The notes beneath the pieces were generated by a model. It had not been told where the DNA came from. It was given only the letters and a program-made list of their open reading frames with translations, and did no database searches. A DNA stretch of 64,000 nucleotides, from positions 960,001-1,024,000 of the forward strand of contig CBDCFN010000016.1 of NCBI GenBank assembly GCA_965216315.1, given 5' to 3'. Every line of letters begins with the position of its first letter. Within the stretch, counting starts at the first letter, position 1. This stretch comes from a bacterium. Lineage in GTDB: Bacteria; UBA10199; 2-02-FULL-50-16; JAJFLM01. Both the position numbers and the translations under genes were made by a program. Below are positions 8,433 through 43,468 of this stretch, in pieces.

Positions 8433-8459
8433 TTATCGTTAAGCATTGCGAAAAGTTGC
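8433..8459 (-). promoter_or_regulatory. RCAAC-N16-CGAW motif copy 1 (putative alternative-sigma promoter)
   Basis: GCAAC-ttttcgcaatgcttaa-CGATAA. Confidence 0.65.
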
Positions 8460-8584
8460 TATCCGAGTTTGCGAAAGTTTTCATGTCTTTGAAATTATTA
8501 GGGATTATCGGAACAACTCCCGCGTGGAGCTCATTAAAATGGGGGTTTTTCGAATGGATTCGGATTCAATTTTTAAAAAATCAC

Positions 8585-8611
8585 ACAACATTTTCGGATT
8601 TTCCCCGATCC
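8585..8611 (+). promoter_or_regulatory. RCAAC-N16-CGAW motif copy 2
   Basis: ACAAC-attttcggattttccc-CGATCC, upstream of the response regulator. Confidence 0.55.
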
Positions 8612-8657
8612 ACTCTAGGTAAGAGGGGAACTTTATTTACCTAGGAGGGAATCTATA

Positions 8658-9428
8658 ATGCAGGCTACATGCTTATACGTCGATGACGACACCACTCAAC
8701 TTTCATTAATGGCTAAGACTCTTTGTCATGAATATCGAGTTTTGACCGCTTCATCTCCCGAACGTGCCTTAGATATATTAAAGGAATCTGACGTTCACGT
8801 GATCATGGTTGATTACATGATGCCGGAGATGACCGGGATAGACTTGGTTGAAAAGGCGCGAGAAATTCGTCCTGAGTCAATATATGTAGTCATTAGTGCC
8901 TATTCCGATCGCGAATATATTCTTGATGCGCTTAAAAGAGGCCATGTTTTTGATTATATCTTGAAGCCTTGGCGTCGCAGTGAGCTGATCAAGGTGATCG
9001 AAGAGGCTTTTAGCGTTTATCAGGAACGCCAGCTTAAGGCTGAAAAGCTTCGCACCTTGCAGGCGGAACGTGACGCTCTGGCCGAAAAGGCGAATGAGCT
9101 GGACGAGGTCCGTGACGAAAAGGACAAGCTTTCGATGGCGCTTCAAGGCTATCTCAGCCCGGAGGATCCGGAGGAAGATGGTCGTGTTCTGCTTGAAAAT
9201 ATTGAGCGAGCGAAAAAGCTCTCACTTAAAGAGACGCTCAAAAAGGCAGAAGGCAACATTTCGGAAGCGGCTCGTATGCTCGATCTTCCGGTATCGACCC
9301 TGTATTATCGCCTTAAGAAATATGGTTTGTTGCAAGCCAAGCCGGGCGAACAGCACGCGAGTTCAGGCAACGGACATCCCCAGTATGCGGATATCGTTTC
9401 TGGTGGTGTTGCTGAAGGAAGCGCCTAA
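8658..9428 (+). CDS. Response regulator: receiver - coiled coil - Fis-type HTH
   Basis: [18 protein letters not shown] receiver motifs. [36 protein letters not shown]. Confidence 0.85.
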
Positions 9429-9637
9429 GACGTTTGCTTCGCTTCGTCTTCTTGGTGATGATGGCCGACGAGTCCAGCGGCTATTTCGCGAAGTGACGTG
9501 ACCACTTCACGGTTTTTGCTGCGCACGAGTGGGTAGGAACCCTTAAAAAGTTCCTTCGCACGTTGGGCGGCAACATGGACCAGGATGAATCGGTTATCGA
9601 CGTGTTCGAGGCAATCTTCAACGGTAACGCGTGCCAT
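9425..9637 (-). CDS. rpoZ: RNA polymerase omega subunit
   Basis: [30 protein letters not shown]...SLREIAAG. Confidence 0.95.
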
Positions 9638-9787
9638 ATAAGTTTCTCTCTTTTGTAGCTAAAAAGCGGTTCTAGCCTTGAGGCTGGGACCGTTTTTTTT
9701 GTCCATTGGTTGGGCGTTAGCCTACACTTCATGAGTGCACTGCGTCAAGGTTTCTACACAAATCCTGAGCATTTTCAATCGGTTAAA

Positions 9788-9816
9788 TTGACACGCCTCC
9801 GAGGGGAGCATACAAC
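9788..9816 (+). promoter_or_regulatory. Putative sigma70 promoter for the histidine kinase
   Basis: TTGACA-N17-TACAAC. Confidence 0.5.
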
Positions 9817-9827
9817 AGAGGGCGGCA

Positions 9828-11768: not shown

Positions 11769-11851
11769 AATCATGTAAAAAAGCTTTGAAAGTTGCATAA
11801 TTGATGGTAAAATTAGATATAATTAATGATAAGAGAGGTAGGTGAGGAGTC

Positions 11852-12814
11852 GTGGCTACCATTAAGAAATACCTGTGGGTGGCCCACCTCTTTGCGATCG
11901 CGGTCTGTGCGTATTTTGTCGCCCAGACGGTCACGACCTATTTATCGATGTTTCTCGTGGAGGAGACGGGGCGAACGGCGACAGCACGGCCTAAGAGCCC
12001 TGAAGAAAGTCGCATTCTACTGGGGCAGGTAAGTGGGTATGACCCGGTAATCGAACGGAATGTCTTTAATTCGGCAAAAATTCCCGTCAACGTGGAATTG
12101 CCAAAGGAGGACATAAAAAAGACAGCTGTCGATCTTGAGGGACCAGCTGTAAAAACTTCTTTGAATATTAAGGTGTTAGGGACTTTAGTCGTTGATGGGG
12201 GCAAGGATAGGCGTTCCTCGGCGACGATCGTAGGCGGAAAAAGCCGCAAACCCGGTGTTTATTTTGTACTCGGGGACGAGGTCTTTGAGGATGGCGTTGA
12301 GCTCGTCCGGGTCAAAAAACATCGCATCGAGTTTACGAATAAAGGGCGGCTTGAATATGCCATGCTCGAGGGGATTTCGGAGGATATCACCCTCTTTGCC
12401 CGTGCAGAGGATGTGCATGGCAAGTCAGATGGCAAGAAGCATCCGAGTAAGAGGAAAACGCCGAAAAGCCGGGAGAGCGCACCGAAGGCCTCAGGCGATA
12501 AACATTTTGTAATCGACCAGCGCGAAGTGGATGAAGCGCTGGCCAATTTAGATCGCTTATATACCGAAGTCAGGATTGTTCCTAACTTCAGAGATGGGCA
12601 GCCGGCCGGGATGAAAATTCTAGCGGTTAAGCCGGGCAGTATTTTTAGTAAGTTGGGACTGCGCAGGGGTGACGTATTGGAAAGAATCAATGGGATGGAA
12701 TTAGACATCAAACGGGGCATGGAGCTGTTTGCTCAACTGAGGGATCAGAAAAACCTCAAGATCGACCTCGTTCGTCGTGGCAAAAACGAAACGCTAGAAT
12801 ATGAAATCAAATAA
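11852..12814 (+). CDS. gspC: Type II secretion system protein C (TM, HR domain, PDZ)
   Basis: N-terminal TM, RNVF, C-terminal PDZ (GLRRGDVLERING). First gene of the gsp operon. Confidence 0.85.
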   Translation: MATIKKYLWVAHLFAIAVCAYFVAQTVTTYLSMFLVEETGRTATARPKSPEESRILLGQVSGYDPVIERNVFNSAKIPVNVELPKEDIKKTAVDLEGPAVKTSLNIKVLGTLVVDGGKDRRSSATIVGGKSRKPGVYFVLGDEVFEDGVELVRVKKHRIEFTNKGRLEYAMLEGISEDITLFARAEDVHGKSDGKKHPSKRKTPKSRESAPKASGDKHFVIDQREVDEALANLDRLYTEVRIVPNFRDGQPAGMKILAVKPGSIFSKLGLRRGDVLERINGMELDIKRGMELFAQLRDQKNLKIDLVRRGKNETLEYEIK

Positions 12815-15767
12815 ATTTTACTTTAGTGTACTGACAGGATTGTTGAGCCTGCTGCTTCAGATTAACTTAATCTCGGCAGCGGAATTGACACCCAATGTAA
12901 CGAATCCTGCGCAAAAGACACCACCGGAGGCGGGATCTGATGTCGGTGGTATCAAGGTTCCGCCAGCGGTTCCGCTGGATAAATTATCTTCACCAAGTAA
13001 GGCGCCAAGTGTGGCGGCTAAGAAAAGCGGTGAAACCCCGGCGGTAAAGACAACGACTCCACCGCCTGCCCCCAAACCGGTAGAGAAGGCGGAGAGGCAA
13101 ACCATTAAGGCCTCCGGCCAAGCGGCGGGTGCCACAACAGATGAGGGTGGGACGACGACCGCAACAACGCCACAGCCAGCACCATCCGCTGAAACCGCCG
13201 AGAAAGCGGTGGCGGCTCCGGATACGGCTCCTTTAGAAAAACTCGTTGGAAGCATTGAAGATGAAGGGGGGCCTGCTGGTAGTGCGACCTCGACCGTATC
13301 GCAACCCTTGCGCGCGGCGGATGAGAAGACGGTCGAAACCGCCGAGAAAAAGCGCGAAGAAGAAGGCGTCTTCTTTAACGTTGCCGGTGAGGATATACGA
13401 GAAATTATTAAGCAAATTAGCCGGGTGACGGGGACGAATTTTATCTTAGATGACAAAATCCGCGGTGAAGTCACCATTATCAGCGAAAAGAAAATGACCA
13501 AAGAAGAGGTCTATGAGGCCTTCTTGTCGGCCTTGGATGTCGCGGGCTATACGACCGTTCCCGGACCGGCGGGTTTGACTAAGATTGTTAAAAAACGGGA
13601 TGCCCTTACGCGGCCGATCCCTATTTACACCGACAAAACGCCCTACACCGATAAGTTTATCACTCGATTGGTCACGCTGAAAAATATCAGTGCCATCGAT
13701 ATGGCGAATGCCATTAAGGGCCTGGTTTCTAAAGAAGGGAATCTGTTTGCGTATCCGGCGACAAATACCCTGATTATTACGGATACAGGGACCAATATTG
13801 AGCGGATTGTGCGCATGGTGCAGGAATTGGATACGGAGGGTCCACAAGAAGTCCTCGAAATCATTCATATCGAATACGCCGATGTCAAAGACATGGCGGA
13901 TAAGATTTCCAAGCTTTTTGGCGGGACTCAACAGACCACGTCTCGCCGGACGAGCCGACGACGTGGCAAAGCGGCAACGCAGACTCAAGAAGCCCTGCCG
14001 ACCGTCAATAAGATTATTTCGGATGAGCGGACGAACTCGCTGATCGTGTTGGCTTCCAAAATTACGATTGCCAAGGTTAAAGATATTATTCGGCGCCTCG
14101 ATCGTCCCCTGATAGGTCCGGAAGAAGGCGATATCCACGTCTTGTATCTTAAAAATGCAAAAGCGAGTGAGATGGCGGAAGTTTTAACCGGCGTGACTCA
14201 GGCGGCCAAGAAGGCCAAGCAAGAGACTAAAAAGACGACGACGAGAGCTAAGCGGCCAAGTGTCCCGCAGGCGGAATTTGAAGGTCTGTTTGGGAGTATT
14301 AAGTCCATCAAAGCGGATGATAATACGAATTCACTGATAGTCCAGGCGAACGCCAAAGACTTTCGCCTCTTGGTGGACCGTATTATTGCCAAGCTCGATA
14401 TCCCCAGGCGTCAGGTTTATATCGAAGCTAACATCATGGAGATCGGTTTAAGGCAGGGGCGAGAGCTGGGAACCGGTATTCTTGGGGGGAAAACGTTTAG
14501 TGTCGGTGGGAATGAATTGGCACTCTTCGGAAATACCTTTCCGTTTATTCCGGACATAACTTCAACTTCTGGAGTGGGAGGCGCAACGACTCAGAACCCG
14601 ATTTCACTAACGCCGCCGTTCTCGGATAATCCGATTAATTTCCCCAAGTTTTTCGCCGCATTTATTGCCCAGTCCGATGAAGCCGAGCTGAATATCCTGT
14701 CGTCACCCAATATCCTCACGCTGGACAACACGGAAGCTCGCATCAAGGTCGGTGATACGATTCCATTCTTGACCGGGAGCGCTTTAACGACGGGAGGCGT
14801 GCAAACGTCCAATATTCAACGTGAAGATGTCGCTCTTGAGCTGAAGGTGAAGCCACAGATAACGGAAGGTGACAACGTTCGTCTGGAAATAAAACAGAAG
14901 ATAGAAGATTTTAGTGAAGCTTCCAATCCGCTTGAGGCGACCGCAGGGCCTGCAACCAGTATTCGTGAGATCGAATCGGAGATTGTTGTGCCCGATAAAC
15001 GGACGATAGTCTTGGGTGGTCTGATGCAAGATAGGGAGTCGTCTAGAAAAACGAAGATCCCACTGCTGGGCGATATTCCTATCCTTGGTTACTTATTTAA
15101 AGGGACCTCGCATTCGAAGACTAAAATTAATTTGCTCATCTTTCTGACGCCGACGATTATCCGCGAGCCCGGTGATTTTCTTGCCGTGTTGAAACAGCGT
15201 ATCGAGCAAAGAAATCGCTTTATTGATGATCATTTTGGAGAGCGGGCACGTAAGAGAATACGCGGGACCATCGAACGACATAATACGGCGCTATTGAACT
15301 TTCAAACGGCGACTTCGCCTTTGAGTGAACCTGGCATATTGCCAACGGATCCTCTCGTGGGCTCTCCGGAGCTGCAGATGGATGCTGGCGATGCGGCACC
15401 GCCGAGTTCCGACCTGAGTATCGATGGGGAACTGACCGCGCTTCCGCCGGCAGCAGAAGCCGGTTACGATGAAGAGCCAACTACAAGTCGTCGCCAGGTG
15501 CAAAAGGGCAGGCGTTCGAAGTTGAAAAAAGGGCGCGTATCGAGATCCGGTCCGGATACGTCAGTCCAGCAACCCTCACCGCCACCGCCGGCGCCGCCGG
15601 CCCCTCGGATTGCTACGGAGCCTCCGGTGACGAATGGTGTCTCCAACGGGGCTGCCTCCTCACCGCCGCCGACCGCCGCTCCCACGCCGCCACCCCCGGC
15701 ACCTCAGCAGGAAGCGGCGGCTCCCAACGGCTCAGGCATGCCCAATGATATAGATCTTGCCTTCTAG
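12801..15767 (+). CDS. gspD: Type II secretion system secretin D
   Basis: N-domains (DIREIIKQIS, DERTNSLIV), LDIPRRQVYIEA, ILSSPNILTLDN, KIPLLGDIPILGYLF. Confidence 0.95.
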   Translation: MKSNKFYFSVLTGLLSLLLQINLISAAELTPNVTNPAQKTPPEAGSDVGGIKVPPAVPLDKLSSPSKAPSVAAKKSGETPAVKTTTPPPAPKPVEKAERQTIKASGQAAGATTDEGGTTTATTPQPAPSAETAEKAVAAPDTAPLEKLVGSIEDEGGPAGSATSTVSQPLRAADEKTVETAEKKREEEGVFFNVAGEDIREIIKQISRVTGTNFILDDKIRGEVTIISEKKMTKEEVYEAFLSALDVAGYTTVPGPAGLTKIVKKRDALTRPIPIYTDKTPYTDKFITRLVTLKNISAIDMANAIKGLVSKEGNLFAYPATNTLIITDTGTNIERIVRMVQELDTEGPQEVLEIIHIEYADVKDMADKISKLFGGTQQTTSRRTSRRRGKAATQTQEALPTVNKIISDERTNSLIVLASKITIAKVKDIIRRLDRPLIGPEEGDIHVLYLKNAKASEMAEVLTGVTQAAKKAKQETKKTTTRAKRPSVPQAEFEGLFGSIKSIKADDNTNSLIVQANAKDFRLLVDRIIAKLDIPRRQVYIEANIMEIGLRQGRELGTGILGGKTFSVGGNELALFGNTFPFIPDITSTSGVGGATTQNPISLTPPFSDNPINFPKFFAAFIAQSDEAELNILSSPNILTLDNTEARIKVGDTIPFLTGSALTTGGVQTSNIQREDVALELKVKPQITEGDNVRLEIKQKIEDFSEASNPLEATAGPATSIREIESEIVVPDKRTIVLGGLMQDRESSRKTKIPLLGDIPILGYLFKGTSHSKTKINLLIFLTPTIIREPGDFLAVLKQRIEQRNRFIDDHFGERARKRIRGTIERHNTALLNFQTATSPLSEPGILPTDPLVGSPELQMDAGDAAPPSSDLSIDGELTALPPAAEAGYDEEPTTSRRQVQKGRRSKLKKGRVSRSGPDTSVQQPSPPPPAPPAPRIATEPPVTNGVSNGAASSPPPTAAPTPPPPAPQQEAAAPNGSGMPNDIDLAF

Positions 15768-15871
15768 CGTTGATGCAATAAACTGAATGATCCAGAGCAG
15801 TTACGGCGTATTCAATTGTCGGCATTGCGCGGATCTGTTATACTGGCCGATGGTGTGCAGAGGGCATAATA

Positions 15872-17602
15872 ATGGAAGATAGAAGCCTGGGAGCAATCCT
15901 GCTTGAAAACAGCAGTCTGAGCCAAGAACAGCTCGATGAAGCCCTGAAAGTTCAGAAAGAAAAGGGCTTTCGCTTGGGTGATGCGCTCATTCAATTAAAA
16001 TATCTGCGTTCGGAGGATATTCTTAAGGCCCTTTCGATCCAGTTAGGCATGCCTTATGCCAATAAAATTGAAGCCGACGAAATTCCTTTAGAGCTCGCTT
16101 CTCAGGTTTCTCTGAATTACGCGAAAAATCATGAGGTGATTCCGCTGGAAAGAACAGCCGCTAAAGTGCGCGTCGCGATGGCGGACCCCTTTGACCACTA
16201 CACTATTGACGACTTGCGGGTTCTCTTTGGCTGCACGATCGAGCCGAAGATCGCGAGCTCGTATGAAATTATTTCTGCCATCAACGTTGTTTACAATAAA
16301 ATCTCTGAGGTCCAGGGCGAAGGCGTCAACGAACTCCAGGATGAAAACTTGGATAGTATTGGGCAGGAGATGGAGGAAGTGCAGGATTTACTGGAATCGG
16401 GGGATGAAGCGCCTATTATCCGCCTCGTCAACTCGTTGCTGTTTAGGGCCGTTAAACAGCAAGCCTCTGATATGCATATCGAACCATTCGAAAAAGAACT
16501 GCTCGTGCGATTCCGCGTTGACGGCGTACTCTATGATATTATGCGCCCCCCCAAGAAGGCGATGGCGGCGATTATCTCGCGTATTAAAATCATGGCAAAT
16601 TTGAATATTGCGGAAAAACGTTTGCCGCAAGATGGACGTATTCGAATCAAAGTGGCTGGTAAGGATGTTGATATTCGTGTTTCTTCAGTGCCAACAGCGT
16701 ATGGAGAATCCATCGTCATGCGTTTATTAGATAAGAGTAAGGGCATACTCGACCTTGACAAAATTGGGATTTCGGAGCGCGTGCTTGATAAGCTTAAAGA
16801 ACTTATTACGCGCCCTCATGGAATCATCCTCGTGACCGGTCCGACGGGTAGTGGTAAAACGACAACTCTTTATGCTGCTTTATCTCGAATCAATACGATT
16901 GATAAAAAGATTCTGACGACCGAAGACCCTGTCGAATATCAGATCGATGGGATTAATCAAATACCCGTTAATGCCTCCATAGGTTTGACGTTTGCAGCTG
17001 GTTTGAGGTCAATCTTACGCCAAGACCCTGACGTGGTCATGGTTGGTGAGATTCGTGATGCGGAGACTGCCGAAATCGCCGTGCAAGCATCGCTGACCGG
17101 TCATTTGGTTTTTTCAACTTTGCATACTAACGATGCTCCCTCGAGTGCGACACGAATTTGCGATATGGGTATCGAACCGTTCCTGGTTTCTTCATCGGTT
17201 ATTGCCATAATTGCTCAACGTCTGGTGCGTACTGTCTGTAAAGATTGTGCCAAAAAATATACGCCGACGGAGGAACAGTTGGCGGAAATGGGGAAGACAT
17301 TAAAGGATTTAAAGGGAAGGCAGCTCTATAAAGCTGTAGGGTGCTCAAATTGTATTGAGACCGGATATGTAGGTCGAACCGGTATTCATGAGCTCATGAT
17401 CATGGATGACGCGCTCAGGGCGCAACTTATGAAGAGTACAGAAGCGACGCAGCTCAAGAAATTAGCCGTGGAACGTGGTATGTGGACACTGCGTGATGAT
17501 GGAGTTGATAAGGCCATCCGGGGAGAGACAACCTTAGAAGAAGTCTTCCGAGTCACCGCCGAAGAAGCTGTGGAAGAAGATCCTTCGATAACGGCGGCTT
17601 AG
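15872..17602 (+). CDS. gspE: Type II secretion ATPase E
   Basis: MshEN-like N-terminus, ASDMHIEP, GPTGSGKTT, LRQDPDVVMVGEIRD, CxxC...CxxC. Confidence 0.95.
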   Translation: MEDRSLGAILLENSSLSQEQLDEALKVQKEKGFRLGDALIQLKYLRSEDILKALSIQLGMPYANKIEADEIPLELASQVSLNYAKNHEVIPLERTAAKVRVAMADPFDHYTIDDLRVLFGCTIEPKIASSYEIISAINVVYNKISEVQGEGVNELQDENLDSIGQEMEEVQDLLESGDEAPIIRLVNSLLFRAVKQQASDMHIEPFEKELLVRFRVDGVLYDIMRPPKKAMAAIISRIKIMANLNIAEKRLPQDGRIRIKVAGKDVDIRVSSVPTAYGESIVMRLLDKSKGILDLDKIGISERVLDKLKELITRPHGIILVTGPTGSGKTTTLYAALSRINTIDKKILTTEDPVEYQIDGINQIPVNASIGLTFAAGLRSILRQDPDVVMVGEIRDAETAEIAVQASLTGHLVFSTLHTNDAPSSATRICDMGIEPFLVSSSVIAIIAQRLVRTVCKDCAKKYTPTEEQLAEMGKTLKDLKGRQLYKAVGCSNCIETGYVGRTGIHELMIMDDALRAQLMKSTEATQLKKLAVERGMWTLRDDGVDKAIRGETTLEEVFRVTAEEAVEEDPSITAA

Positions 17603-17637
17603 CTTGGGTCTATCAGTCACTGATATAATTCATTTAT

Positions 17638-18867: not shown

Positions 18868-18907
18868 AAGGTTTGGGTGTAATTATTAAATACGGAGGTA
18901 AGTAAGC

Positions 18908-19357
18908 ATGAAGCACCGAAGCACTAAAAGAGAATTGGGTATGACCCTGATCGAAATTATGGTCGTGGTCACAATTCTGGGAATTCTCGCGACCATTGTA
19001 ACCGTCAATGTTCTCGATCGTCTGGATCAAGCCAAGGTAAGTGCCGCGGTGACGCAGATGAAAAATCTTGAGGGTGCACTTGATGAGTTCAGGCGAGATA
19101 ACGGGTTTTATCCATCGACCGAGCAGGGTTTGAAATCCTTGATTGAGAAACCGACTGTCGGTCGTGAGGCAAAACGTTATCCCCGCAATGGTTATCTTAA
19201 AGGGAACGAGGTTCCACGTGATCCCTGGGACTGTGACTTTATTTATAATAGTCCTGGTCTTCAAGGGAACCCTTACGAAATCACTTCGCTGGGCTCTGAT
19301 TGCGCCGAGGGGGGTGAGGATGCCGATGCCGACATCAAGAGCTGGGAGTCTCAGTAA
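18908..19357 (+). CDS. gspG: Major pseudopilin G
   Basis: G-MTLIE prepilin motif, DNGFYPSTEQGL, DPW, SLGSD...GGED..ADI. Confidence 0.95.
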   Translation: MKHRSTKRELGMTLIEIMVVVTILGILATIVTVNVLDRLDQAKVSAAVTQMKNLEGALDEFRRDNGFYPSTEQGLKSLIEKPTVGREAKRYPRNGYLKGNEVPRDPWDCDFIYNSPGLQGNPYEITSLGSDCAEGGEDADADIKSWESQ

Positions 19358-22585: not shown

Positions 22586-22588
22586 TAT

Positions 22589-24801: not shown

Positions 24802-24802
24802 G

Positions 24803-25705: not shown

Positions 25706-25752
25706 CCGATAGGGACTTGACAGTCCCTCACTATCTCGCTTAGCTGACTGCG

Positions 25753-30928: not shown

Positions 30929-31312
30929 GTGGTTGATGCGATTAGTAACGGAATTCGAGTTCAAGTGCAGAGCGAATATCGTGAGGAGGGTTCATCTCCG
31001 GAAGACGGTGTTTATATTTTTTCTTATAAGGTGACGATCAGTAATCACAGTGATCGAGACGTTCAATTAATGACGCGGCACTGGATTATTACCGACGCGG
31101 ATGGAAAAAAAGAAGAAGTTCGCGGGCCTGGTGTTGTAGGCATCCAACCAGTTATCGAACCGGGACACGCTTTTTCATATTCGAGTTTTTGCCCCTTAAA
31201 AACGCCTGTCGGCTCAATGCATGGAACCTATCAAATGGTGACGCGAGAGGGGAATGATTTTGAAGCGGTGATTGCCCCGTTTACCTTAGCAGTTCCCGGA
31301 ACTCTGCAGTAA
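30929..31312 (+). CDS. apaG: ApaG
   Basis: QLMTRHWIITD, GPGVVGIQP, TPVGSMHGTYQM. Confidence 0.95.
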   Translation: MVDAISNGIRVQVQSEYREEGSSPEDGVYIFSYKVTISNHSDRDVQLMTRHWIITDADGKKEEVRGPGVVGIQPVIEPGHAFSYSSFCPLKTPVGSMHGTYQMVTREGNDFEAVIAPFTLAVPGTLQ

Positions 31313-32345
31313 GCAGGTCCAGGTGGTCCGTATGGGTCCGCGTTTCGGGGTGTTCATCTCCCGCGATTCTTTCCTTAAATTCACGCATTCTGGCCTCGGC
31401 TTCACTGGCCTGTCCGTTGTGGCTTAAGGCTGTCGCGAGTAAGAGATGGGTGGCGGGGAAAAATCGATCGCTGACGCTATCCAGATAAACACTCAGGCTG
31501 AGGCTGTTAATGGCTGCGGGCCAATTGTTGAGGTGCATATAGCTAATGCCTAATTCAGCTTGAGGAAGGCTGTTGTCCCCCATATTGCGGCTGGCTTGTT
31601 TGAGTGCCTGAATAGAAAGATGTATTCTTTGTTGGCTACGCCAGAGTATGCCTAATTGAGTCCACACATACGAATGCGGTCGTTGCCATAAGGACCAACG
31701 TAAGAAATTTTCGGCTTCATCGGTATGGCCCAGGGCGCTGAGCGCGAGTGCCAGCTTGGTTGTCTGTCCGGGTTGGGGCCCGTCCTCTATGGAGGTTGAG
31801 TGTTCTGCGGCGCGGACAAAGTTGGCGATGGAAGTCGCATGATCTCCTGCACCGGCATCGGCATGAGCCATGCGAAACAGTGTGCTCGGATTGTCGGTTG
31901 CGAGGCAGGGTTTTCCGCCGGTTTCACGGAGCAGCGGCTTCAGCTTTTTGATGTCACTCCACAGCGTTGCCATATTTTCCGGATAAAGAACGTCGACGCG
32001 GGGGAGTTGGAGTGCAGCGTAAGCTTCCAGGTGTCCCGCAATGCTGGCGACGGCGGCTTGATTATGTCTGAGTTCAAGCAGATGCTGGCGGCCGCGCTGC
32101 AAGGTTTGAGCTGGCTCTTCGCCTGAGGAGGCCTGTTCGATCAGTTGGTCGACGGTCTCCATGTCAGTGGTGAGTCCCGCCAAGGCGTAGGAGCCGGCAA
32201 GATCTTGGAAGCTCAAGGTTAAGGCGGCAGAAGTTTGATGCTGCGTGGCATTGCGGATCCAGTGATTTACATTGCTGGTATGCAATGGACCTGTGGCCGC
32301 AAGAATAGGCGCAAGTGGGACCGATAATGTGAATATGCCCGACAC
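31281..32345 (-). CDS. Orphan protein with C-terminal TPR-like helical repeats (apparently leaderless, GTG start)
   Basis: 354-aa ORF with TPR-like LALALSALG..EA, LGILW, LGISY...A repeats. Motif 7 nt upstream of the start. Confidence 0.65.
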   Translation of the reverse strand: MSGIFTLSVPLAPILAATGPLHTSNVNHWIRNATQHQTSAALTLSFQDLAGSYALAGLTTDMETVDQLIEQASSGEEPAQTLQRGRQHLLELRHNQAAVASIAGHLEAYAALQLPRVDVLYPENMATLWSDIKKLKPLLRETGGKPCLATDNPSTLFRMAHADAGAGDHATSIANFVRAAEHSTSIEDGPQPGQTTKLALALSALGHTDEAENFLRWSLWQRPHSYVWTQLGILWRSQQRIHLSIQALKQASRNMGDNSLPQAELGISYMHLNNWPAAINSLSLSVYLDSVSDRFFPATHLLLATALSHNGQASEAEARMREFKERIAGDEHPETRTHTDHLDLLTAEFRELLR

Positions 32346-32352: not shown

Positions 32353-32379
32353 CTATCGACAATCCCTGGAAAAAGTTGC
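32353..32379 (-). promoter_or_regulatory. RCAAC-N16-CGAW motif copy 3
   Basis: GCAAC-tttttccagggattgt-CGATAG-7 nt-GTG. Confidence 0.7.
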
Positions 32380-32427
32380 ACAAAAGATATGCCGCACTGC
32401 GTTATCATGGGTGGAGACTGGCGCGAA

Positions 32428-32454
32428 GCAACTTCTGATTGAGCTGACCGAAAG
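32428..32454 (+). promoter_or_regulatory. RCAAC-N16-CGAW motif copy 4
   Basis: GCAAC-ttctgattgagctgac-CGAAAG-6 nt-ATG. Overlaps the SD, so weaker. Confidence 0.4.
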
Positions 32455-32460: not shown

Positions 32461-33870
32461 ATGCAACTTGCGTCGCTGCCGATCCACCAGCTCCATGGCC
32501 TTCTCGTGGGGTATCAGATCAGTGCCGTTGATCTTACCCAGGAATGTCTCGCCCAAATTGAGGCCTTTGACGATGAGGTGAATGCCTTCATCAGCGTGAT
32601 GCCGGAGCAGGCCATTCAGGCCGCGGTGGCTGCGGAACATCGCTTGTTGGATAGAGATCGCGTCACCCCCCTGACGGGAATTCCCATTGCTATCAAGGAT
32701 AATATTTTCACAGTCGGGACGCCGACCAGTTGTGCGTCCCGCTATTTTGCCGGCCATCGGGCGGACTATGATGCCAGCGTGGTCCGCCGTCTCCAAGCCG
32801 CGGGCGCCGTCATTATTGGCAAGACGAATATGGATGAATTTGCAATGGGTTCTTGGGCGACGACATCTTTCTATGGTCCCACCCGCAATCCATGGGATTT
32901 GCAACGTTTGCCCGGCGGCAGTTCCGGTGGCAGCGCTGCGGCGGTTGCGGCGCACATGGCCGTGGCGGCATTGGGAACGGATACCGGGGGGTCCGTGCGT
33001 CAACCCGCTTCTTTGTGTGGTCTCGTCGGACTCCGTCCCACCCATGGCATTATTAGTAATCATGGACTCGTTCACTCGGTAGCGTCCCTTGATACTATTG
33101 GACCCATGACGCGTGAGGTGATGGACTGTGCCTATTTATTGAGTATTCTTATCGGCGAGGATGCTGCCGATCCTGCCGCGCGGCCTCTGGCGCGCGTCGA
33201 CCCTGATTTTCTAAGCGCCGGTATCAAAGGACTTCGCATCGGCGTGCCCCAGGAGCTGATGGAGACGCTGGAGAGCGATATTGATGGCGCGCTGGCAACG
33301 GCTCTGAATGAATTGTTGAGACTTGGGGCAAAGGTTCAAGCCGTATCGATCCCGAAAATCGAGACGGCCTTGGCGACCTACAATGTACTGGCTGCGGCTG
33401 GGGCCGCCGAGACGTTTAAGACAATTGACTTCGAGGGGGCGGGGCTGGGTGAGGAAGTGACGCGCCGGATTCTGGCCGGGGTGCGTTATTTAACGGGTGA
33501 TCAACAGGCCCGATTAGCAGAGGCGCGGCGGGAACAGTCGTCCCTTAAAAGGGCCTTCCAGCGGATTTTTAAGCGCGGTGTTGATATATTATTTGCGCCG
33601 ACTTCCCCCATAACCGCCATTCGACTCGATGAAATTGCCGATTACGACCCGGAACGCTTACACCTTTCCGATATGATGGTGGTCCCGGCAGCGTTGGCCG
33701 GCTTGCCGGCCTTGTCGCTGCCTGCGGGTTTTTCCACTGATGGCCTTCCCATCGGGATGCAGCTCATTGGTCCCGCCTTGTCGGATCAATGGCTCTTGCG
33801 CGTCGCTTATGCCTATGAGCAAAACACCGACTGGCATCGACGCCGGCCACCGCACTTAAGTGATCATTAA
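32461..33870 (+). CDS. Amidase signature enzyme (GatA-like)
   Basis: IKDN, GKTNMDEFAMGS, PGGSSGGSAAAVA, GTDTGGSVRQPA. No gatB/gatC adjacent. Confidence 0.85.
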   Translation: MQLASLPIHQLHGLLVGYQISAVDLTQECLAQIEAFDDEVNAFISVMPEQAIQAAVAAEHRLLDRDRVTPLTGIPIAIKDNIFTVGTPTSCASRYFAGHRADYDASVVRRLQAAGAVIIGKTNMDEFAMGSWATTSFYGPTRNPWDLQRLPGGSSGGSAAAVAAHMAVAALGTDTGGSVRQPASLCGLVGLRPTHGIISNHGLVHSVASLDTIGPMTREVMDCAYLLSILIGEDAADPAARPLARVDPDFLSAGIKGLRIGVPQELMETLESDIDGALATALNELLRLGAKVQAVSIPKIETALATYNVLAAAGAAETFKTIDFEGAGLGEEVTRRILAGVRYLTGDQQARLAEARREQSSLKRAFQRIFKRGVDILFAPTSPITAIRLDEIADYDPERLHLSDMMVVPAALAGLPALSLPAGFSTDGLPIGMQLIGPALSDQWLLRVAYAYEQNTDWHRRRPPHLSDH

Positions 33871-33881
33871 TGGGGTTGAAG

Positions 33882-34451: not shown

Positions 34452-34486
34452 AATGACCTCCTCAGTAGTCAACGTCGATCGAGAGA

Positions 34487-35821
34487 CTAGTCAGGAAGGT
34501 CCGGAATCGCAAGTTCTATGCCCAATTTCTGCTTGGCATGTTTGACGAGTAAGGGAAGCATCGGTCGTGCATCAGGACTGACTCGTGCCCAGTATGCCTT
34601 GCCAAGAGGGGTTCCGCGCCGGTACTCATCACAGAGCCATTTGATGAGATAGACACTATACGCAAAATTAAGTTGCAGGTTCTCATACTCCTTTTTGTCG
34701 AACATAATTCTTAATTCCGCATCCGCAAATTCAAAACAAGTTATGGCGACCATCCAATTATGGAGGCGTTCATTGAGCTCCGTGATGTGCCTCTGTGTAG
34801 AATTGAGAATGGCCGGCATTAATGAGAATTGGCGGTAGTGTTGGTTCATTTCGTTGCGTAATAGGGTGTGGGCGCGATCCCAGCTTGGGGGATGATGGTC
34901 CTCGAATAAATAACCCCAGCCCTGGTAGCCAGGATCCATGGAGAAGCGGACACGAAAAACCGCCTGCCCTTTGTGGCCTTGATGGCCGAGGGCTAGCAGG
35001 AAACGCTTACCGAGTGAGCCGTGACCGTCAGCTCGGAACTCGAGTAGCTCCCAGGCATGCTGGATTTTTTCGATTCTGTCTTGATCGAAAAGATCGAGTT
35101 TAACATCGATAGAAATTAAGTATTCCTTAAATTGAGCGAGGACTTCGGTGCGATCTCTTTCACGTGCAAAATCAAAGCCGAGTCGAGGGAAGACGTAACA
35201 ACCCGCCTTAGTGACGGGCAGTTCCAGGGCATCCAGCCCCAAGCGCTGGAGAAAGGCGATCTCACGTTGGGTGCGCCGACGGCCGATACCCTGACCCTGG
35301 AGTTGATCGTTGGTAATAATGAAACCGTCTCCTTGAGCGATCCATGCTTCGCCGAGCGCTGTTTTTGCCGGAATCTTACGCGCGGAAAAACCGATTTCTT
35401 CATGGTCACTACTTGTTTCGACAAAGGCGCGGATATAGAGGCTGGTTTCACCGATGAATTCCAGTTCGAGGCGTCCGAGTTGAAAGCCCTCGACGTCGAG
35501 GTAAAAGGCGGCGGATAATTCCCGAATGGTCAAGGTGCGCCCGAAGAGCTGCGGGCTCTTTTCATCGAGTGCGTGTGCGGTGCCAGCGCCGGCTGGTTTT
35601 TCAAAGATCTCCGGTATTATGCCGCGAAAGAAGGTGACCTGTCGGATAGGTTCATCGCTGGGGCCTAGATCAGCCAAGAAGCGCCTGATTGGCTCGGATC
35701 CGAAGCGGTTCCACAATTGCTCCCGGGTGGAGTCGCTCAGGTCGGAACTCAGTAGGGTCGTACTGGCCAGGACGGGTGCGCTAATGGTTGTCAGGCTTGA
35801 GCAGGTCGACAAGTGCCACAT
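34487..35821 (-). CDS. Orphan protein with a central GNAT-like segment (apparently leaderless)
   Basis: 444-aa ORF with QLQGQGIGRR (Q/RxxGxG) and GCYVFPRLGF motif-B-like segment. Confidence 0.65.
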   Translation of the reverse strand: MWHLSTCSSLTTISAPVLASTTLLSSDLSDSTREQLWNRFGSEPIRRFLADLGPSDEPIRQVTFFRGIIPEIFEKPAGAGTAHALDEKSPQLFGRTLTIRELSAAFYLDVEGFQLGRLELEFIGETSLYIRAFVETSSDHEEIGFSARKIPAKTALGEAWIAQGDGFIITNDQLQGQGIGRRRTQREIAFLQRLGLDALELPVTKAGCYVFPRLGFDFARERDRTEVLAQFKEYLISIDVKLDLFDQDRIEKIQHAWELLEFRADGHGSLGKRFLLALGHQGHKGQAVFRVRFSMDPGYQGWGYLFEDHHPPSWDRAHTLLRNEMNQHYRQFSLMPAILNSTQRHITELNERLHNWMVAITCFEFADAELRIMFDKKEYENLQLNFAYSVYLIKWLCDEYRRGTPLGKAYWARVSPDARPMLPLLVKHAKQKLGIELAIPDLPD

Positions 35822-35828
35822 GGGCCCC

Positions 35829-35855
35829 TAATCGCAGGATAGCCAGCAATGTTGC
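35829..35855 (-). promoter_or_regulatory. RCAAC-N16-CGAW motif copy 5
   Basis: GCAAC-attgctggctatcctg-CGATTA-7 nt-ATG. Confidence 0.7.
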
Positions 35856-35878
35856 GAGAAAAATAACGCGCAGCGTTA

Positions 35879-37459: not shown

Positions 37460-37482
37460 TCCATAACGATAAGAACTTATTG

Positions 37483-37520
37483 AAACGGCACCTGGCTGAC
37501 GCTGGGTGCCGTTTTTTTTT
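37483..37520 (+). terminator. Intrinsic terminator
   Basis: AACGGCACCTGGC-tgac-GCTGGGTGCCGTT followed by a T tract. Confidence 0.8.
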
Positions 37521-38436
37521 ATTCTTTTGGGATGGTGCGAGCCAGATAGGATCGAAATGCTTTGGTCGCGAGTGGATGAAGCAACGGTGAAACCTCCGCC
37601 AAGATGGCATAGGACATGTCCTGAAAAGCCTGTAGATAGACCCTATATTCAGGGCTTTCCAGGCCAACCAGGCTTTTTAGTCGTGCCAGTTCGGACAGGC
37701 CAGGTCCCCAAATGTAAGCGACCAACCCACTAATGGTAAAATCCTTGGTTTCGATATCGATCGCATGATTCATCATCGTGTTGAGTACATCATGCAGAAC
37801 AGGGTCTGAGGTATATGCTTTCATGGCATCGTAACATTCATAGGCGAACTGGCGCGCGTATTTGTGGAGGCGGCCGATACAGTAGCCGTGAAAGATGTCG
37901 TGAATAGCAAAAATAAAAGGATCGACTATGACGCGGGCGTCACCGAGCCACAGGGGCGCCTCGGCCATGCCAATGGGATGTTGATTTTCTCGATGCAGGG
38001 CATTGATGTCATCTCGCTCAAGAATGCCTGACGAGCGGACCCACTGAATCGGTACTTGGTCGCGCCCATCGAACGCAATGGCCGCCGAGAGTTCTAGAAA
38101 CGAAAGGGAGGGGACATGCCAGATGACGGCGTCATCTTGGCGCCTGACGAGCAGAAGTCGATGACGCAACATGTTTTCAAGTCGCTTGAACAACCAGTTG
38201 ACGTCAAAATCGCTGGTTTCTCTCAAGGAATCGCGTGGCATCGTCAATTGAAGTACCTGCAAAGCAGCGCTGTCGTCTGGGTGCTGCTGAGAGAGTCGTG
38301 ATTCAATCGTGGTGACGAACTGAGGATCACCTAAAGGGCCCGTGTCAGCTAAGACGGAGATGCTTGCATGGGCTATGCGGGTGGAAAAATTGACGGCGAG
38401 TTGGGTCCAGGCCAGGTTCATATTTTGGCTCAGCAT
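37519..38436 (-). CDS. Orphan protein with HDxxH motif (apparently leaderless)
   Basis: 305-aa ORF with FAIHDIFH. Motif 7 nt upstream of the ATG. Confidence 0.65.
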   Translation of the reverse strand: MLSQNMNLAWTQLAVNFSTRIAHASISVLADTGPLGDPQFVTTIESRLSQQHPDDSAALQVLQLTMPRDSLRETSDFDVNWLFKRLENMLRHRLLLVRRQDDAVIWHVPSLSFLELSAAIAFDGRDQVPIQWVRSSGILERDDINALHRENQHPIGMAEAPLWLGDARVIVDPFIFAIHDIFHGYCIGRLHKYARQFAYECYDAMKAYTSDPVLHDVLNTMMNHAIDIETKDFTISGLVAYIWGPGLSELARLKSLVGLESPEYRVYLQAFQDMSYAILAEVSPLLHPLATKAFRSYLARTIPKE

Positions 38437-38443
38437 AATAGGC

Positions 38444-38470
38444 TCATCGGCGCTTGTGGGGATCTGTTGT
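38444..38470 (-). promoter_or_regulatory. RCAAC-N16-CGAW motif copy 6
   Basis: ACAAC-agatccccacaagcgc-CGATGA-7 nt-ATG. Confidence 0.65.
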
Positions 38471-38591
38471 GGCTATTTATTAGTGCGCTTTTTATATTTC
38501 TCATATGCATAAATATCTATAATAGATATATAATAATATATAATTATAATATATCTTTATTTTCGTGGGGCCGTGGAGTAAGCTCAACACA

Positions 38592-40498: not shown

Positions 40499-40507
40499 GG
40501 TGGCCCA

Positions 40508-40550
40508 TGAGCCGGCCGACGGTCACCCGTCGTCCGGCTCAGACCTTTTG
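40508..40550 (+). terminator. Hairpin after truD
   Basis: TGAGCCGG-C-CGACGG...CCGTCG-T-CCGGCTCA then CCTTTTG. Confidence 0.5.
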
Positions 40551-40998
40551 AGTGTCGCTATGACTTTCTCTCCCCGCCCAGAGAGGCTGCAAATAGAGGG
40601 CCAACGCGGATTCGCGGCTAAGTCCTTGATAATACTGAGTCACCGCGGTGAAGGGGGGTGCCAAAAATGCAAAGATACCCCCATAAGTGTCAACTTATTG
40701 ACTCAAAAAACCGTTGGTAGCGGATTGTTTCTAAGGTTGAGCGCGGACGCTTCGTCACGGCTCAAGCGATGGCTGAAGAAATTTTATCTGTGACGATGCA
40801 CTCCATTTTTCTGCGCCACGTCCTCTCGGCATGTTTAAAAAATAGGCAACAAAAATTGAAGTCCGCTGAAAATAAATCTGCGTTTGACCCTATAAATAAA
40901 GGCTAAAATGAAAAAAAATATTCGACAAGCCTTGCTATTCTTGCTAATAATGGGCGCCTGAATAGCACTCATACTTTTACCGAAGGAGGTAATCTCTA

Positions 40999-41319
40999 AT
41001 GGCTAAAGCTCTAACAAAAGCACAAACAATCGACAAACTTGCGACACGCAGTGGTTTCACTAAAAAAGATATCGCGGGTGTGCTCGAAGAATTGGCCAAC
41101 TTAGCTTATAAAGAAGCAAAGAATGGTTTCACCTTGCCAGGACTGGGTAAACTCGTACTGGTGAATCGTAAGGCACGCATGGGACGTAATCCTCAAACTG
41201 GTGAGGCCATTAAGATTCCAGCGAAACGCGTCGTTAAATTCCGTGTAGCCAAAGCGGCTAAAGATTCCATTCTTGGACCTGCCAAGAAAAAGCCTGCTGC
41301 ACGTAAAAAGCGTAAGTAA
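40999..41319 (+). CDS. hup: HU family DNA-binding protein with basic C-terminal tail
   Basis: LPGLGKL...RKARMGRNPQTGEAIKIPAK, tail PAKKKPAARKKRK, GGAGGT RBS. Confidence 0.92.
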   Translation: MAKALTKAQTIDKLATRSGFTKKDIAGVLEELANLAYKEAKNGFTLPGLGKLVLVNRKARMGRNPQTGEAIKIPAKRVVKFRVAKAAKDSILGPAKKKPAARKKRK

Positions 41320-41340
41320 GTTAGTTTAGTTTTGAATTAT

Positions 41341-41380
41341 AAGGGGCGGATCGATTTTAATCGGTCCGCCCCTTTTTTTT
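41341..41380 (+). terminator. Intrinsic terminator
   Basis: AAGGGGCGGATCGATT-tt-AATCGGTCCGCCCCTT followed by a T tract. Confidence 0.85.
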
Positions 41381-42372
41381 TATTTAGCTAAATACTTGTA
41401 TTCGACGAACCAATCATAGGCTGTTTGAATTGCTTGCTGTGCGGAAGCGGGCTGGTAATCAAGCTCTTTGCGGGCCTTGTCGGAACTGACATAATGACCG
41501 ATGCGACCGATACGCATGACATGATTGTTAATGTCGGCGAAAGTATGGGGCCAAATGCGGCCGAGTAAACCGCCTAAGAATCCTACCGGCCAAGTCAAGC
41601 GCGGGTCGAGAGGCAGCTTAGGTGTTTTTGCTTTCGTGATGGTCGCCATGAGTTTCATGATATCCAGATAAGTCAGATTGTCTCCCCCGAGTATATAGCG
41701 TTCACCTGTCTTACCTTTTATTAAGGCATTGATGTGGCCATCGACGACGGCATCGACCGGGGCGAGAGAAATGCCACCAAGCGGATAAACGGGGACCTTG
41801 CCCTTGGCGATCATGATCAGCATGCGGCCGCTCGTTGGACGAATATCCCAGGGCCCGATGATATAACCGGGGTTGACGACCACCGCATCTAATGAATGGT
41901 TGCGGACGGCTTGCAAGACGACTTGTTCGCCTTCATATTTCGAATCACAGTAGGGATTATTGAGGTCTTTAAAATTCCACTCGCTGTTTTCTGTCGCCGG
42001 ATTATCGGGTGAGCCGTAACCGATTGCTGCAATAGAGCTGGTATGGACGAGACGTTTGACGCCGGCATCGAGGCAGGCGGTCACGATGTGGCGGACTCCC
42101 TCGACGTTGATGCTCTCGGTATGGTGACGGACAAAAGGGCTGATATTGACATAGCCGGCGACGTGAAAAACGACTTCACAGCCATCCACTGCCGAACGGA
42201 GCGTGCTGGGCTTCGTGATGTCACCATAGGCTTTTTCCAAAGGCAGCCCATCTAAGGGCCAGGTCTGGCTGCTCTTGCGGAGCAGGATACGAACATCATG
42301 TCCTGCTTTAATGAGACGTCGGACGAGATTGATGCCGACAAGCCCCGTAGCGCCGGTAACGAGTATTTTCAT
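41380..42372 (-). CDS. NAD-dependent epimerase/dehydratase (HpnA/dihydroflavonol reductase-like)
   Basis: TGATGLVG, HTSSIAAIG, YCDSK, VVVNPG.IIGP.D. Confidence 0.85.
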   Translation of the reverse strand: MKILVTGATGLVGINLVRRLIKAGHDVRILLRKSSQTWPLDGLPLEKAYGDITKPSTLRSAVDGCEVVFHVAGYVNISPFVRHHTESINVEGVRHIVTACLDAGVKRLVHTSSIAAIGYGSPDNPATENSEWNFKDLNNPYCDSKYEGEQVVLQAVRNHSLDAVVVNPGYIIGPWDIRPTSGRMLIMIAKGKVPVYPLGGISLAPVDAVVDGHINALIKGKTGERYILGGDNLTYLDIMKLMATITKAKTPKLPLDPRLTWPVGFLGGLLGRIWPHTFADINNHVMRIGRIGHYVSSDKARKELDYQPASAQQAIQTAYDWFVEYKYLAK

Positions 42373-42415
42373 CGTGATTTCCTGAAGGAGCTATTACCGC
42401 GTTGCCTGACGATAA

Positions 42416-43384
42416 TCAATGTTCTATCTTGTCCAAGAGCGCATCGATCTGTGCGAGCCTGGCTTCAAGTCTGTTATATGTCTTGGAGAGGTACAGCCGT
42501 GCTTCATAGCCACGATCGGTTTGGGTGGCCACGTCGCGGGCGATTTCTTGAAACTCGCGCGCGTCGATAAGCCTAATGAGTTCAGCAAAGGCGGCACCAT
42601 AAAGATCCCGGTAATAAACAAAGCGCAGCTCACGAGGGGCCATGGCGTCCAATCCGCCCAAGAATTGGCGGGTCGCAGCGACAATGGAGTTGAGATAAAT
42701 CGAAATGACTCTGACTTGCTCGGGGCTATTCCGCGGCTGTGCGGCGTTGATATCATCAAAGTAAGTTTGGCCTTCATCGATCAGTCCCCGCAATAATGCA
42801 ATGAAGGTTCGGGCAAATAGCGCGCCAAAGGCATTCACTTCAGGATTATCTTTCAGGCGATAATATTGATTTAAACTATAGACCGTCATTGTTGGCGAGT
42901 CCTTGAGTTGATGTGGCTGCTGAGTAGCCGCCAAGGCAACTCTCTTGCGTGTGGGCGGTGTACGTAAAGTCGCTACAAAGACATCAAGCGCCCCGCGCCA
43001 TGAGGGCTGGTCCAGGTCAAGCAGGGCATGCAGTTCATTTAACTGACCGAAGGGGCGATACCGGTAAGACCATTCCAGCGCAAAGCGCCGGCTGAAACGA
43101 CTTGCTAGCAGGACCGCCCCGACTCCCAAAACTATAATTGTTGCGGGCCCCAAAGAATCATCAGTACAGCCGGCACTGCCGGCTGCCAATGCGGTTAGTG
43201 TTGTGCGCGTGGCTACCGATGAACGTATCTCGTGGAGAGAACAATCAGGGAGAATTGTAGCGTGAGGTTCTATTTGTGTTGAGTCAACACGAGTAGAGTT
43301 TTCCGAAAGGGAGGTATTAGAACGTATGGCTGCCAAGAGTAATCCTGGTTGGCAGAAACTTAGTATGTGAGATGAAGCGATCAT
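42416..43384 (-). CDS. Orphan protein, Ser/Thr-rich N-terminus, one TM, helical C-terminus
   Basis: 322-aa ORF, TM ATIIVLGVGAVLLA, GGAGCGAGG RBS. Confidence 0.6.
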   Translation of the reverse strand: MIASSHILSFCQPGLLLAAIRSNTSLSENSTRVDSTQIEPHATILPDCSLHEIRSSVATRTTLTALAAGSAGCTDDSLGPATIIVLGVGAVLLASRFSRRFALEWSYRYRPFGQLNELHALLDLDQPSWRGALDVFVATLRTPPTRKRVALAATQQPHQLKDSPTMTVYSLNQYYRLKDNPEVNAFGALFARTFIALLRGLIDEGQTYFDDINAAQPRNSPEQVRVISIYLNSIVAATRQFLGGLDAMAPRELRFVYYRDLYGAAFAELIRLIDAREFQEIARDVATQTDRGYEARLYLSKTYNRLEARLAQIDALLDKIEH

Positions 43385-43441
43385 TTACAACCTCGCTCCC
43401 ATGACCATGACATGACACCCCGTACAGCACCTGACTATGGT

Positions 43442-43468
43442 TCTTCGGCTAGGTGTCCAGCAGGTTGC
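43442..43468 (-). promoter_or_regulatory. RCAAC-N16-CGAW motif copy 7
   Basis: GCAAC-ctgctggacacctagc-CGAAGA, about 57 nt before the ATG at 43384. Confidence 0.6.

Follow-up and report, generated by a model that had tools for sequence, protein, structure and literature searches.

Scattered over a 64,000-nucleotide stretch of DNA from a bacterium of the phylum UBA10199 (contig CBDCFN010000016.1, here C16, positions C16:960001-1024000; this whole stretch is called the window) are copies of a two-box motif, RCAAC-N16-CGAW, which we read as the promoter of a distinct sigma-28 subfamily that is encoded within a non-flagellar type III secretion system (T3SS) cluster and would control late genes, among them tagged cargo of that T3SS. 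We put the probability of this reading at about 0.72; the pairing of sigma factor and promoter, the start sites of transcription and the secretion of the products are all deduced from sequence.

In the window the motif has 11 matches, compared with 2.46 +/- 1.43 in 100 shuffles (maximum 5). Seven of these had been listed in an earlier note on this DNA, and all are present with the boxes and the 16-nt spacer that it gave; the four further matches (24539+, 45465-, 50363- and 56893-) lie inside long open reading frames (ORFs), in roughly the number expected by chance. Across the source genome (G000; 2.96 Mb, 98% complete), RCAAC-Nn-CGAW occurs 350 times at n=16 and 105-164 times at each of eight other spacers between 12 and 20. 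By a crude greedy ORF calling that leaves 7.6% of the genome as non-coding, 154 of the 350 copies at n=16 are in non-coding DNA, as opposed to 8 of 114 at n=15, 8 at n=13 and 2 at n=20. Among the 154, 95 have a downstream ORF on their own strand only, 6 on the opposite strand only, 50 on both and 3 on neither; the equal frequency in coding DNA or in both orientations that the earlier note had named as fatal to its idea is not seen, and the motif observation therefore stands. The definition of the motif needs extending, since its boxes and spacer hold while the real motif is longer: positions outside the seed pattern fill in, with TTT after the -35 core and GC before CGATAA, to give a genome-wide consensus of RCAACTTT-N11-GCCGATAA and, in its fuller form, CGCAACTTTT-N10-GCCGATAA. 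A weight matrix trained on the non-coding sites finds 287 sites scoring at least 14 (184 non-coding), and only 50-62 (2-8 non-coding) when the -10 box is moved 1-3 nt closer, an excess over the shifted control from which we take about 200 genomic sites to be real. Spacers of 17 and 18 nt account for 30 additional non-coding sites each, one of which, with an 18-nt spacer at 60150-60178(+), is an eighth window site that the earlier list of seven did not include.

To judge by its features, the repeated motif is a real type of promoter with predicted start sites: its orientation is strict, its boxes are asymmetric, its spacer is free and start codons peak exactly at the expected +1 without a Shine-Dalgarno sequence. 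That it should be the two-box operator of a transcription factor, or the remnant of a repeat, is hardly credible in the face of these promoter features, even granting that the promoter call is drawn from sequence only and that the 17- and 18-nt spacers would be odd for a stringent sigma-28 factor.

The promoter is of the sigma-28 kind. The -10 box of sigma-28 is given as GCCGATAA, in agreement with the earlier note's reading of the 3' box, and the -35 box as TCTAAAG (PMC12784957). In E. coli numbering CGATAA occupies -13 to -8 (bioRxiv 10.1101/2020.01.02.893370), which places +1 at 7 nt after CGATAA. From the five-base -35 core to CGATAA there are 16 nt, the same as in sigma-28 promoters, and the motif thus keeps the -10 box and the geometry of sigma-28 promoters, while its -35 box is altered. 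The standard TAAAG-N16-CGATA is not enriched in this genome (14 versus 7 in the control). The earlier note had preferred a hybrid with a -35 box of the extracytoplasmic function (ECF) type, and this we have dropped because the logo is that of sigma-28, ECF sigmas are sparse and the FliA-like sigma described below has a changed region-4.2 helix. The AAC in the -35 box, the CGA in the -10 box and the 16-nt spacer do recall ECF promoters, and the genome encodes two ECF sigmas; these, however, were found in only 21 and 29 of 87 UBA10199 genomes at least 80% complete (E<=1e-15, single-protein queries), all 87 of which carry the motif, while the extended logo is the sigma-28 logo, the full motif is not seen in the 150 nt shown at either ECF gene, and it would be unusual for an ECF regulon to comprise some 200 promoters and yet lack an autoregulatory site. 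The ECF reading appears largely refuted by this distribution, and recognition by one of the two ECF sigmas, or by a true hybrid sigma, strikes us as highly improbable.

The genome holds five genes of the sigma-70 family, namely RpoD, an RpoH-like sigma, the two ECF sigmas and one FliA-like sigma, in which the core of region 2 is kept and the 4.2 helix is changed. Its gene lies outside the window at C16:350586-351410, between sctJ and sctL/sctN, and the protein is apparently a divergent relative of the FliA/WhiG (sigma-28) family: its best PDB matches are WhiG and FliA (E 3e-24 to 2.5e-13), it keeps the region 2 core R-x-x-G-A-x-x-D-x-x-R of FliA, and it has no match to the sigma70_r3 Pfam model. 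The helix of region 4.2 that reads the -35 box has the sequence SKSW[TV]SRLH in 46/46 loci, versus SESRVSQLH in FliA. Base contacts are made by S224 and Q228 in P. aeruginosa sigma-28 (PMC12784957), and the residue equivalent to Q228, mapped by the S-x-x-x-Q pattern, is an Arg in the FliA-like sigma. This changed helix would account for the changed -35 box, with CAAC read where FliA reads AAAG, and the FliA-like sigma is very probably the factor that reads RCAAC-N16-CGATAA. Flagellin (PF00669) and FlgM (PF04316) have no match in the 98% complete genome. The earlier note's idea of a single alternative sigma over scattered, mostly lineage-specific genes is supported. A plasmid search returned ordinary FliA/WhiG only, and three genomes without flagellin (G078, G079 and G080) hold a second paralogue of the T3SS sigma at 31-41% identity.

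The cluster around the sigma gene encodes SctV, SctJ, SctL, SctN, SctO, SctP, SctQ, SctR and SctT, together with FliO- and FliG-like genes and a rod-like gene. SctV scores 806 bits against TIGR01399 (cut-off 692) and falls below the cut-off of the FlhA model; SctN and the SctR-family protein are above their cut-offs, and SctJ, SctQ and SctT below theirs. By its gene content, with an export apparatus and ATPase of the non-flagellar type and no flagellin, this is a non-flagellar T3SS. There is no SctC secretin in the cluster, the matches in the genome being the GspD of the type II secretion system in the window, the only strong one, and a weak 253-aa match, and a Tad/Kil secretin was not found in the genome. 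A conserved gene at C16:347385-347936, before the gene for an SctG-like chaperone, offers a needle-like, unproven lead to the needle subunit SctF: a profile of 18 homologues matches 7y6c_F of a needle-chaperone complex at E 0.0027 and PrgI at E 0.54 and 0.85, none of the 18 matches a Pfam needle family, and the single-sequence model of the protein, with one C-terminal helix, is poor (pLDDT, the predicted local distance difference test, 59). About 45 bases of the 3' end of sctR are repeated just before sctS (C16:359230-359400).

Two small genes lie upstream of the sigma gene, and the second, which is fast-evolving, has a disordered N-terminus and no Pfam match and is placed like flgM, is a lead for a FlgM-like anti-sigma factor. 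Its predicted complex with the sigma scores 0.35, where the best of three controls reaches 0.01, and lends this weak support (among complexes of known structure 116 of 157 reach the mark for such scores, and among mismatched pairs 2 of 215, but of those reaching it at 0.60 or below there are only 18 solved complexes as well as both mismatches); at least 28% of the contacts agree between runs, with a partner pLDDT of at least 47.

In the survey of 87 UBA10199 genomes the strict motif is present in every one, at 6-91 copies each versus 0-3 for the reversed control, and so is the FliA-like sigma (best E <= 3.2e-47), which adjoins T3SS genes in 46 of 47 fetched related loci, the exception being a different sigma. 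Flagellin was found in 10 of the 87 genomes, and these ten hold a second, distant FliA, which has the canonical helix in the one that was read. No RCAAC site precedes a gene in their flagellar loci (0/14); of 14 genes of the flagellin family or for fliD, taken from 8 genomes, 7 are instead preceded by xxAAG-N15/16-YCGTW, a motif found by eye that gives no clean signal genome-wide, with 2-10 copies in flagellated and 0-8 in other genomes and 2-19 for its reversed control. TAAAG-N16-CGATA, expected to be enriched in the ten flagellated genomes, is enriched nowhere. At loci L197, L198, L200, L201, L203 and L205 (in the flagellated relatives G047, G081, G052, G068, G051 and G070), flagellin-family and fliD genes carry YTMAAG-N16-CGTW, which combines a canonical-like -35 with an altered -10 box, and region 2 of the flagellar FliA of G051 has RGQ in place of RGA. 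Divergence of the two sigma-28 paralogues may thus have affected opposite boxes. Short flagellin-like genes (~220-270 aa) also lie outside the flagellar cluster in flagellated relatives (L196, L197, L198, L200 and L201).

Beyond UBA10199, the same helix type marks a wider subfamily (68 SKSW and 13 SRSW among 150 top representatives) whose record names include Acidobacteriota and Myxococcota. A second phylum, probably Myxococcota, was represented by 61 genomes, and at least 4 motif copies are present in 11 of 20 with the helix type versus 4 of 41 others (p 2.6e-4), in a comparison whose cut-off was chosen after the counts, whose genomes include non-independent kin and which rests on helices read from the best matches of only 46 genomes. 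One Myxococcota-labelled contig carries a module of needle-like, chaperone, small-protein, sigma and rod-like genes with the motif before the first and the last.

The targets of the promoter share two further properties. Of 341 matrix sites scoring at least 13, 235 lie no more than 100 nt from an ORF start, and at 100 of them (ORFs of at least 100 aa) the start codon falls 4-14 nt after the -10 box, most often at 7 nt (29 sites); a Shine-Dalgarno sequence is present in 7 of these 100 and in 43 of 123 leadered targets, and on the predicted start sites the 100 targets are near-leaderless. In this family the products of most leaderless targets, and of many leadered ones, begin with a charge-free peptide of 20-25 residues, rich in Ser, Thr, Ala and Leu and with an L-A-S/A core. 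Positions 2-21 hold no more than one charged residue in 80 of the 100 leaderless targets, compared with 12.8% of 1841 control ORFs, and a hydrophobic-L-A-S/A/G motif lies within residues 8-26, mostly beginning at residues 13-19, in 34 of the 100 and in 70 of the 1841 controls. A peptide rule, composed after the targets had been seen, picks 79 of 2075 ORFs, of which 61 have a site within 120 nt, versus 132 of the 1996 others and 0 of the 79 with the shifted matrix; among the 18 that lack a site, the gene immediately before carries a promoter in six cases, and weaker sites, with scores of 10.6-12, are present in four. Both the peptide and the leaderless starts are seen again in the two other genomes of the family (G023 and G024). 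The peptide is an add-on grafted onto ordinary enzymes: a tagged NADP-glutamate dehydrogenase can be aligned, at 62-63%, with ordinary ones whose sequence starts 22 residues later, and a diverged tag of like make-up is kept in a relative. A Sec signal is disfavoured by its low hydrophobicity relative to 67 lipoprotein signals (1.58 vs 2.77), and it has no basic n-region. The composition of the peptide and its being an add-on fit a T3SS export signal, and on balance we lean towards its being one.

No Pfam match was obtained for 38 of the 56 leaderless targets scanned (out of 100, four more having been scanned apart) or for 43 of 60 further peptide-bearing proteins, rates that cover targets only. 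Cargo that can be named includes patatins, Ser/Thr kinases and adenylate cyclase-AAA-TPR proteins; signalling modules, namely a RelA/SpoT domain, GGDEF, receiver and histidine kinase modules and a helicase with sigma region 4; and metabolic enzymes, namely acetyl-CoA carboxylase, acyl-CoA synthetase, phosphofructokinase, cysteine desulfurase, malic enzyme and an aromatic amino acid lyase. The bacterial signalling domains suggest a bacterial target. The metabolic enzymes bear on a different account, in which the same sigma and promoter serve a general life-stage programme, as in the attack phase of Bdellovibrio or with WhiG of Streptomyces, and the peptide is no T3SS signal, acting instead in compartment targeting or stability or as an odd Sec signal cut at L-A/S. 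Acetyl-CoA carboxylase, glutamate dehydrogenase, the histidine-lyase family and phosphofructokinase would be unusual as effectors, and the tagged lyase has no second genomic copy; phosphofructokinase, cysteine desulfurase, biotin carboxylase, glutamate dehydrogenase and malic enzyme, on the other hand, each have an untagged relative in the genome, where none was found for the lyase, RelA-like, acyltransferase and dioxygenase proteins. V/A-L-A at residues 13-19 resembles a signal-peptidase site, and many targets in other families and in the 18-nt class have Sec or lipoprotein signals, yet the peptide itself has neither the basic n-region nor the hydrophobic core of Sec signals. The absence of a secretin from the T3SS cluster would also fit the life-stage account; the fixed place of the sigma inside that cluster, and the promoter and peptide borne by the genes right after it, would not. 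We judge the life-stage account rather unlikely and continue with a T3SS-linked regulon. The tagged acetyl-CoA carboxylase is a single chain of 2588 aa with an ACC_central region and a fused biotin ligase (C16:1632121-1639887, L353), and a tagged acyl-CoA synthetase adjoins it.

Promoters with the 18-nt spacer, GCAACT-N17-CGATAA, form a class of their own, found at C16:349487(+), C16:368180(+) and window position 60150(+) and also at L040-L084. The pair of small genes upstream of the sigma has a site of this class before it in the source genome, as it does in 13 of 32 relatives (in a 14th there is just the weak 15-nt match type alongside), and the targets of the class in the source genome, judged by eye, mostly have Sec or lipoprotein signals. 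These promoters may need an activator. With Sec and lipoprotein targets in it, the regulon would amount to a whole attack or host-contact programme.

Besides the late composition of the peptide rule, several observations tell against a sigma-28 subfamily serving T3SS cargo. The best NCBIfam match of the sigma, TIGR02479, reaches 133.1 bits and stays under the cut-off of 189.6, and the RpoH-like sigma was set aside on the sigma-32 consensus only. Most T3SS structural genes have no 16-nt site, and no SctC secretin was found that would account for a route past the outer membrane. The strict peptide motif occurs in 2/29, 0/25, 0/26 and 0/14 targets of four other families, whose targets have varied N-termini, several of them Sec signals; as the peptide is confined to one family, a universal export signal is not established. 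In the second phylum, where the design of the comparison is itself a weakness, 4 genomes have 5-8 motif copies and no such sigma was found in them, 9 genomes with the helix type carry 0-2 copies, and the sigma is mostly apart from T3SS genes.

In the mechanism that we propose, the sigma would have kept the -10-reading region 2 of FliA and changed its -35-reading helix. The T3SS apparatus would be built first, and the sigma would then become active, perhaps on export of an anti-sigma factor, and switch on the late genes from about 200 scattered promoters, many of them leaderless; tagged products would leave through the T3SS, and Sec-type products would remodel the surface. A bolder version, possible but in our estimate doubtful, is that an early-branching injectisome has retained the late-gene checkpoint of the flagellum: a fast-evolving FlgM-like protein, encoded just upstream, would hold a re-specified sigma-28 in check until that protein is exported, whereupon the sigma would turn on ~200 genes, and some 80-150 tagged products (in this family), including signalling modules and metabolic enzymes, would pass into a bacterial host by way of a T3SS that bears a needle and has no secretin. 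If this is true, the members of the phylum UBA10199 would be parasites or predators that reprogramme another bacterium's metabolism from outside. One promoter in 87/87 genomes would in any case be a readable master switch for an uncultured phylum of unknown lifestyle, from which candidate secreted proteins could be listed for each genome in turn, in the way that the hrp box served to list the effectors of Pseudomonas. A sigma-28 subfamily whose -35 specificity has changed through a few helix residues would be a test case for the co-evolution of sigma factors and promoters, and could supply an orthogonal promoter for synthetic use; and a sigma-28 factor with a possible anti-sigma and needle- and rod-like genes in a secretin-less T3SS bears on the origin of the injectisome from the flagellum and on what the intermediates export.

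We found no description of the promoter, the sigma subfamily or a T3SS in UBA10199 in a literature search of partial coverage; a sigma gene may be annotated in the Myxococcus cluster. The regulon is a variant of the sigma-28 regulon and not a canonical member of the FliA group; its sigma would play the part that FliA has in the flagellar cascade and HrpL has for effectors. HrpL is an ECF sigma from the T3SS cluster of Pseudomonas syringae, and the hrp box marks scattered effector genes. Common to both are a sigma encoded in the T3SS cluster and a promoter that predicts scattered effectors; HrpL, however, is an ECF sigma with another consensus and drives the structural operons, which here mostly lack a 16-nt site. 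The earlier note's analogies, with HrpL boxes and with the FliA-driven attack-phase genes of Bdellovibrio, are apt.

Shared with FliA of E. coli and P. aeruginosa are the -10 box GCCGATAA, the 16-nt core spacing, the region 2 core and the standing of a group-3 sigma (bioRxiv 10.1101/2020.01.02.893370, PMC12784957), as well as a late-gene logic tied to a type III export apparatus. Unlike FliA, the present sigma goes with RCAAC rather than TAAAG as -35 box, has the helix SKSWTSR rather than SESRVSQ and no sigma70_r3 match, and comes from a gene within a non-flagellar T3SS cluster in a genome in which no flagellin or FlgM was found. In Bdellovibrio bacteriovorus, FliA accounts for 92 of 140 attack-phase promoters, with TTAAG-N16-CCGATA (PMC3627812), and is likewise a sigma-28 acting as a global switch of many non-flagellar, uncharacterised genes; Bdellovibrio keeps a canonical -35 box and a flagellum (PMC3627812), whereas here the sigma is a separate paralogue whose gene is linked with a cluster of the injectisome type, and in flagellated relatives the flagellum has a second FliA of its own. 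Chlamydia, too, retains sigma-28 for late genes in a non-flagellated, T3SS-bearing bacterium, although with two bound promoters, hctB and tsp, and a canonical consensus (PMC12282069), compared with about 200 sites here. The T3SS of Myxococcales has been described as an evolutionary intermediate (PMC3459982) and is used in prey lysis (PMC12075869). Like the 'needleless' T3SS* (Myxo NF-T3SS) of Myxococcus xanthus, the cluster comprises SctV, J, L, N, O, P, Q, R, S and T together with FliO- and FliG-like parts, and no secretin (PMC3459982, PMC12075869). It differs in that it also holds a needle-like gene next to one for an SctG-like chaperone, a rod-like gene, two further TPR chaperones with possible translocators, and the sigma; the word sigma does not occur in PMC12075869.

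The window sites and their targets, followed by one feature from elsewhere on C16, are these (scores are those of the weight matrix):

8433..8460, minus strand: promoter, score 23.1, predicted to drive a candidate small RNA.
8313..8425, minus strand: candidate small RNA of ~113 nt, with a predicted +1 at 8425, an internal hairpin and an intrinsic terminator with a U-run.
8584..8611, plus strand: putative promoter with a weak -10 box (CCCGATCC), score 16.3, 46 nt before the response regulator; the least certain of the seven.
8658..9428, plus strand: response regulator (REC and Fis helix-turn-helix), a leadered target with a Shine-Dalgarno sequence.
32353..32380, minus strand: promoter, score 18.9, with the start codon 7 nt downstream at the predicted +1.
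31281..32345, minus strand: 354-aa TPR-containing protein, leaderless, with an N-terminal LAA peptide.
32427..32454, plus strand: promoter, score 18.9, divergent from 32353..32380, with an ATG 6 nt downstream.
32461..33870, plus strand: amidase-family protein, leaderless, without an N-terminal extension.
35829..35856, minus strand: promoter, score 17.3, with an ATG 7 nt downstream.
34487..35821, minus strand: 444-aa protein, leaderless, with an N-terminal LAS peptide and no Pfam match.
38444..38471, minus strand: promoter, score 17.8, with an ATG 7 nt downstream.
37519..38436, minus strand: 305-aa orphan, leaderless, with a charge-poor N-terminus in which the exact peptide motif is not present.
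43442..43469, minus strand: promoter, score 16.4, 57 nt upstream of an ATG.
42416..43384, minus strand: 322-aa orphan with an N-terminal LAA peptide.
60150..60178, plus strand: 18-nt-spacer site, additional to the seven.
C16:366258-372364: candidates for translocon and tip, by position only.

Four of the seven sites are of the leaderless kind. The set of targets is the one that the earlier note had named (four orphans, a response regulator, an amidase and a small RNA candidate), except that one orphan has TPR matches and another a GNAT-like domain. The latter, in the 444-aa protein, is common to two other targets and is a lead only (atlas score 0.94, with PF00583 on 20% of cluster members); for the 305-aa orphan an atlas search returned no reliable look-alike. 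The window amidase is 43% identical to a second, GatA-like copy in the genome, its paralogue. The fold of the candidate small RNA (8310-8426) has a predicted energy of -42.9 kcal/mol and a z of -5.07, much of which the terminator alone may give, and an Rfam scan of the window returned two tRNAs only and no family for the candidate.

Elsewhere in the window, tandem genes for tRNA-Leu and tRNA-Thr lie at 3336-3493, and 11852-27009 holds a type II secretion cluster (GspC, GspD, GspE and the genes after them), which follows the response regulator behind the motif and a PilS-like kinase. At C16:2159181-2197000, ~14 same-strand genes each have a strong promoter (scores 16-27), and their products have Cys/Pro-rich N-termini, unlike the LAS peptide, with similar ones in G024. 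Several genes behind 16- or 17-nt sites at C16:97715-105926, 284268 and 2281678 are presumably TIGR02147/DUF4423-like.

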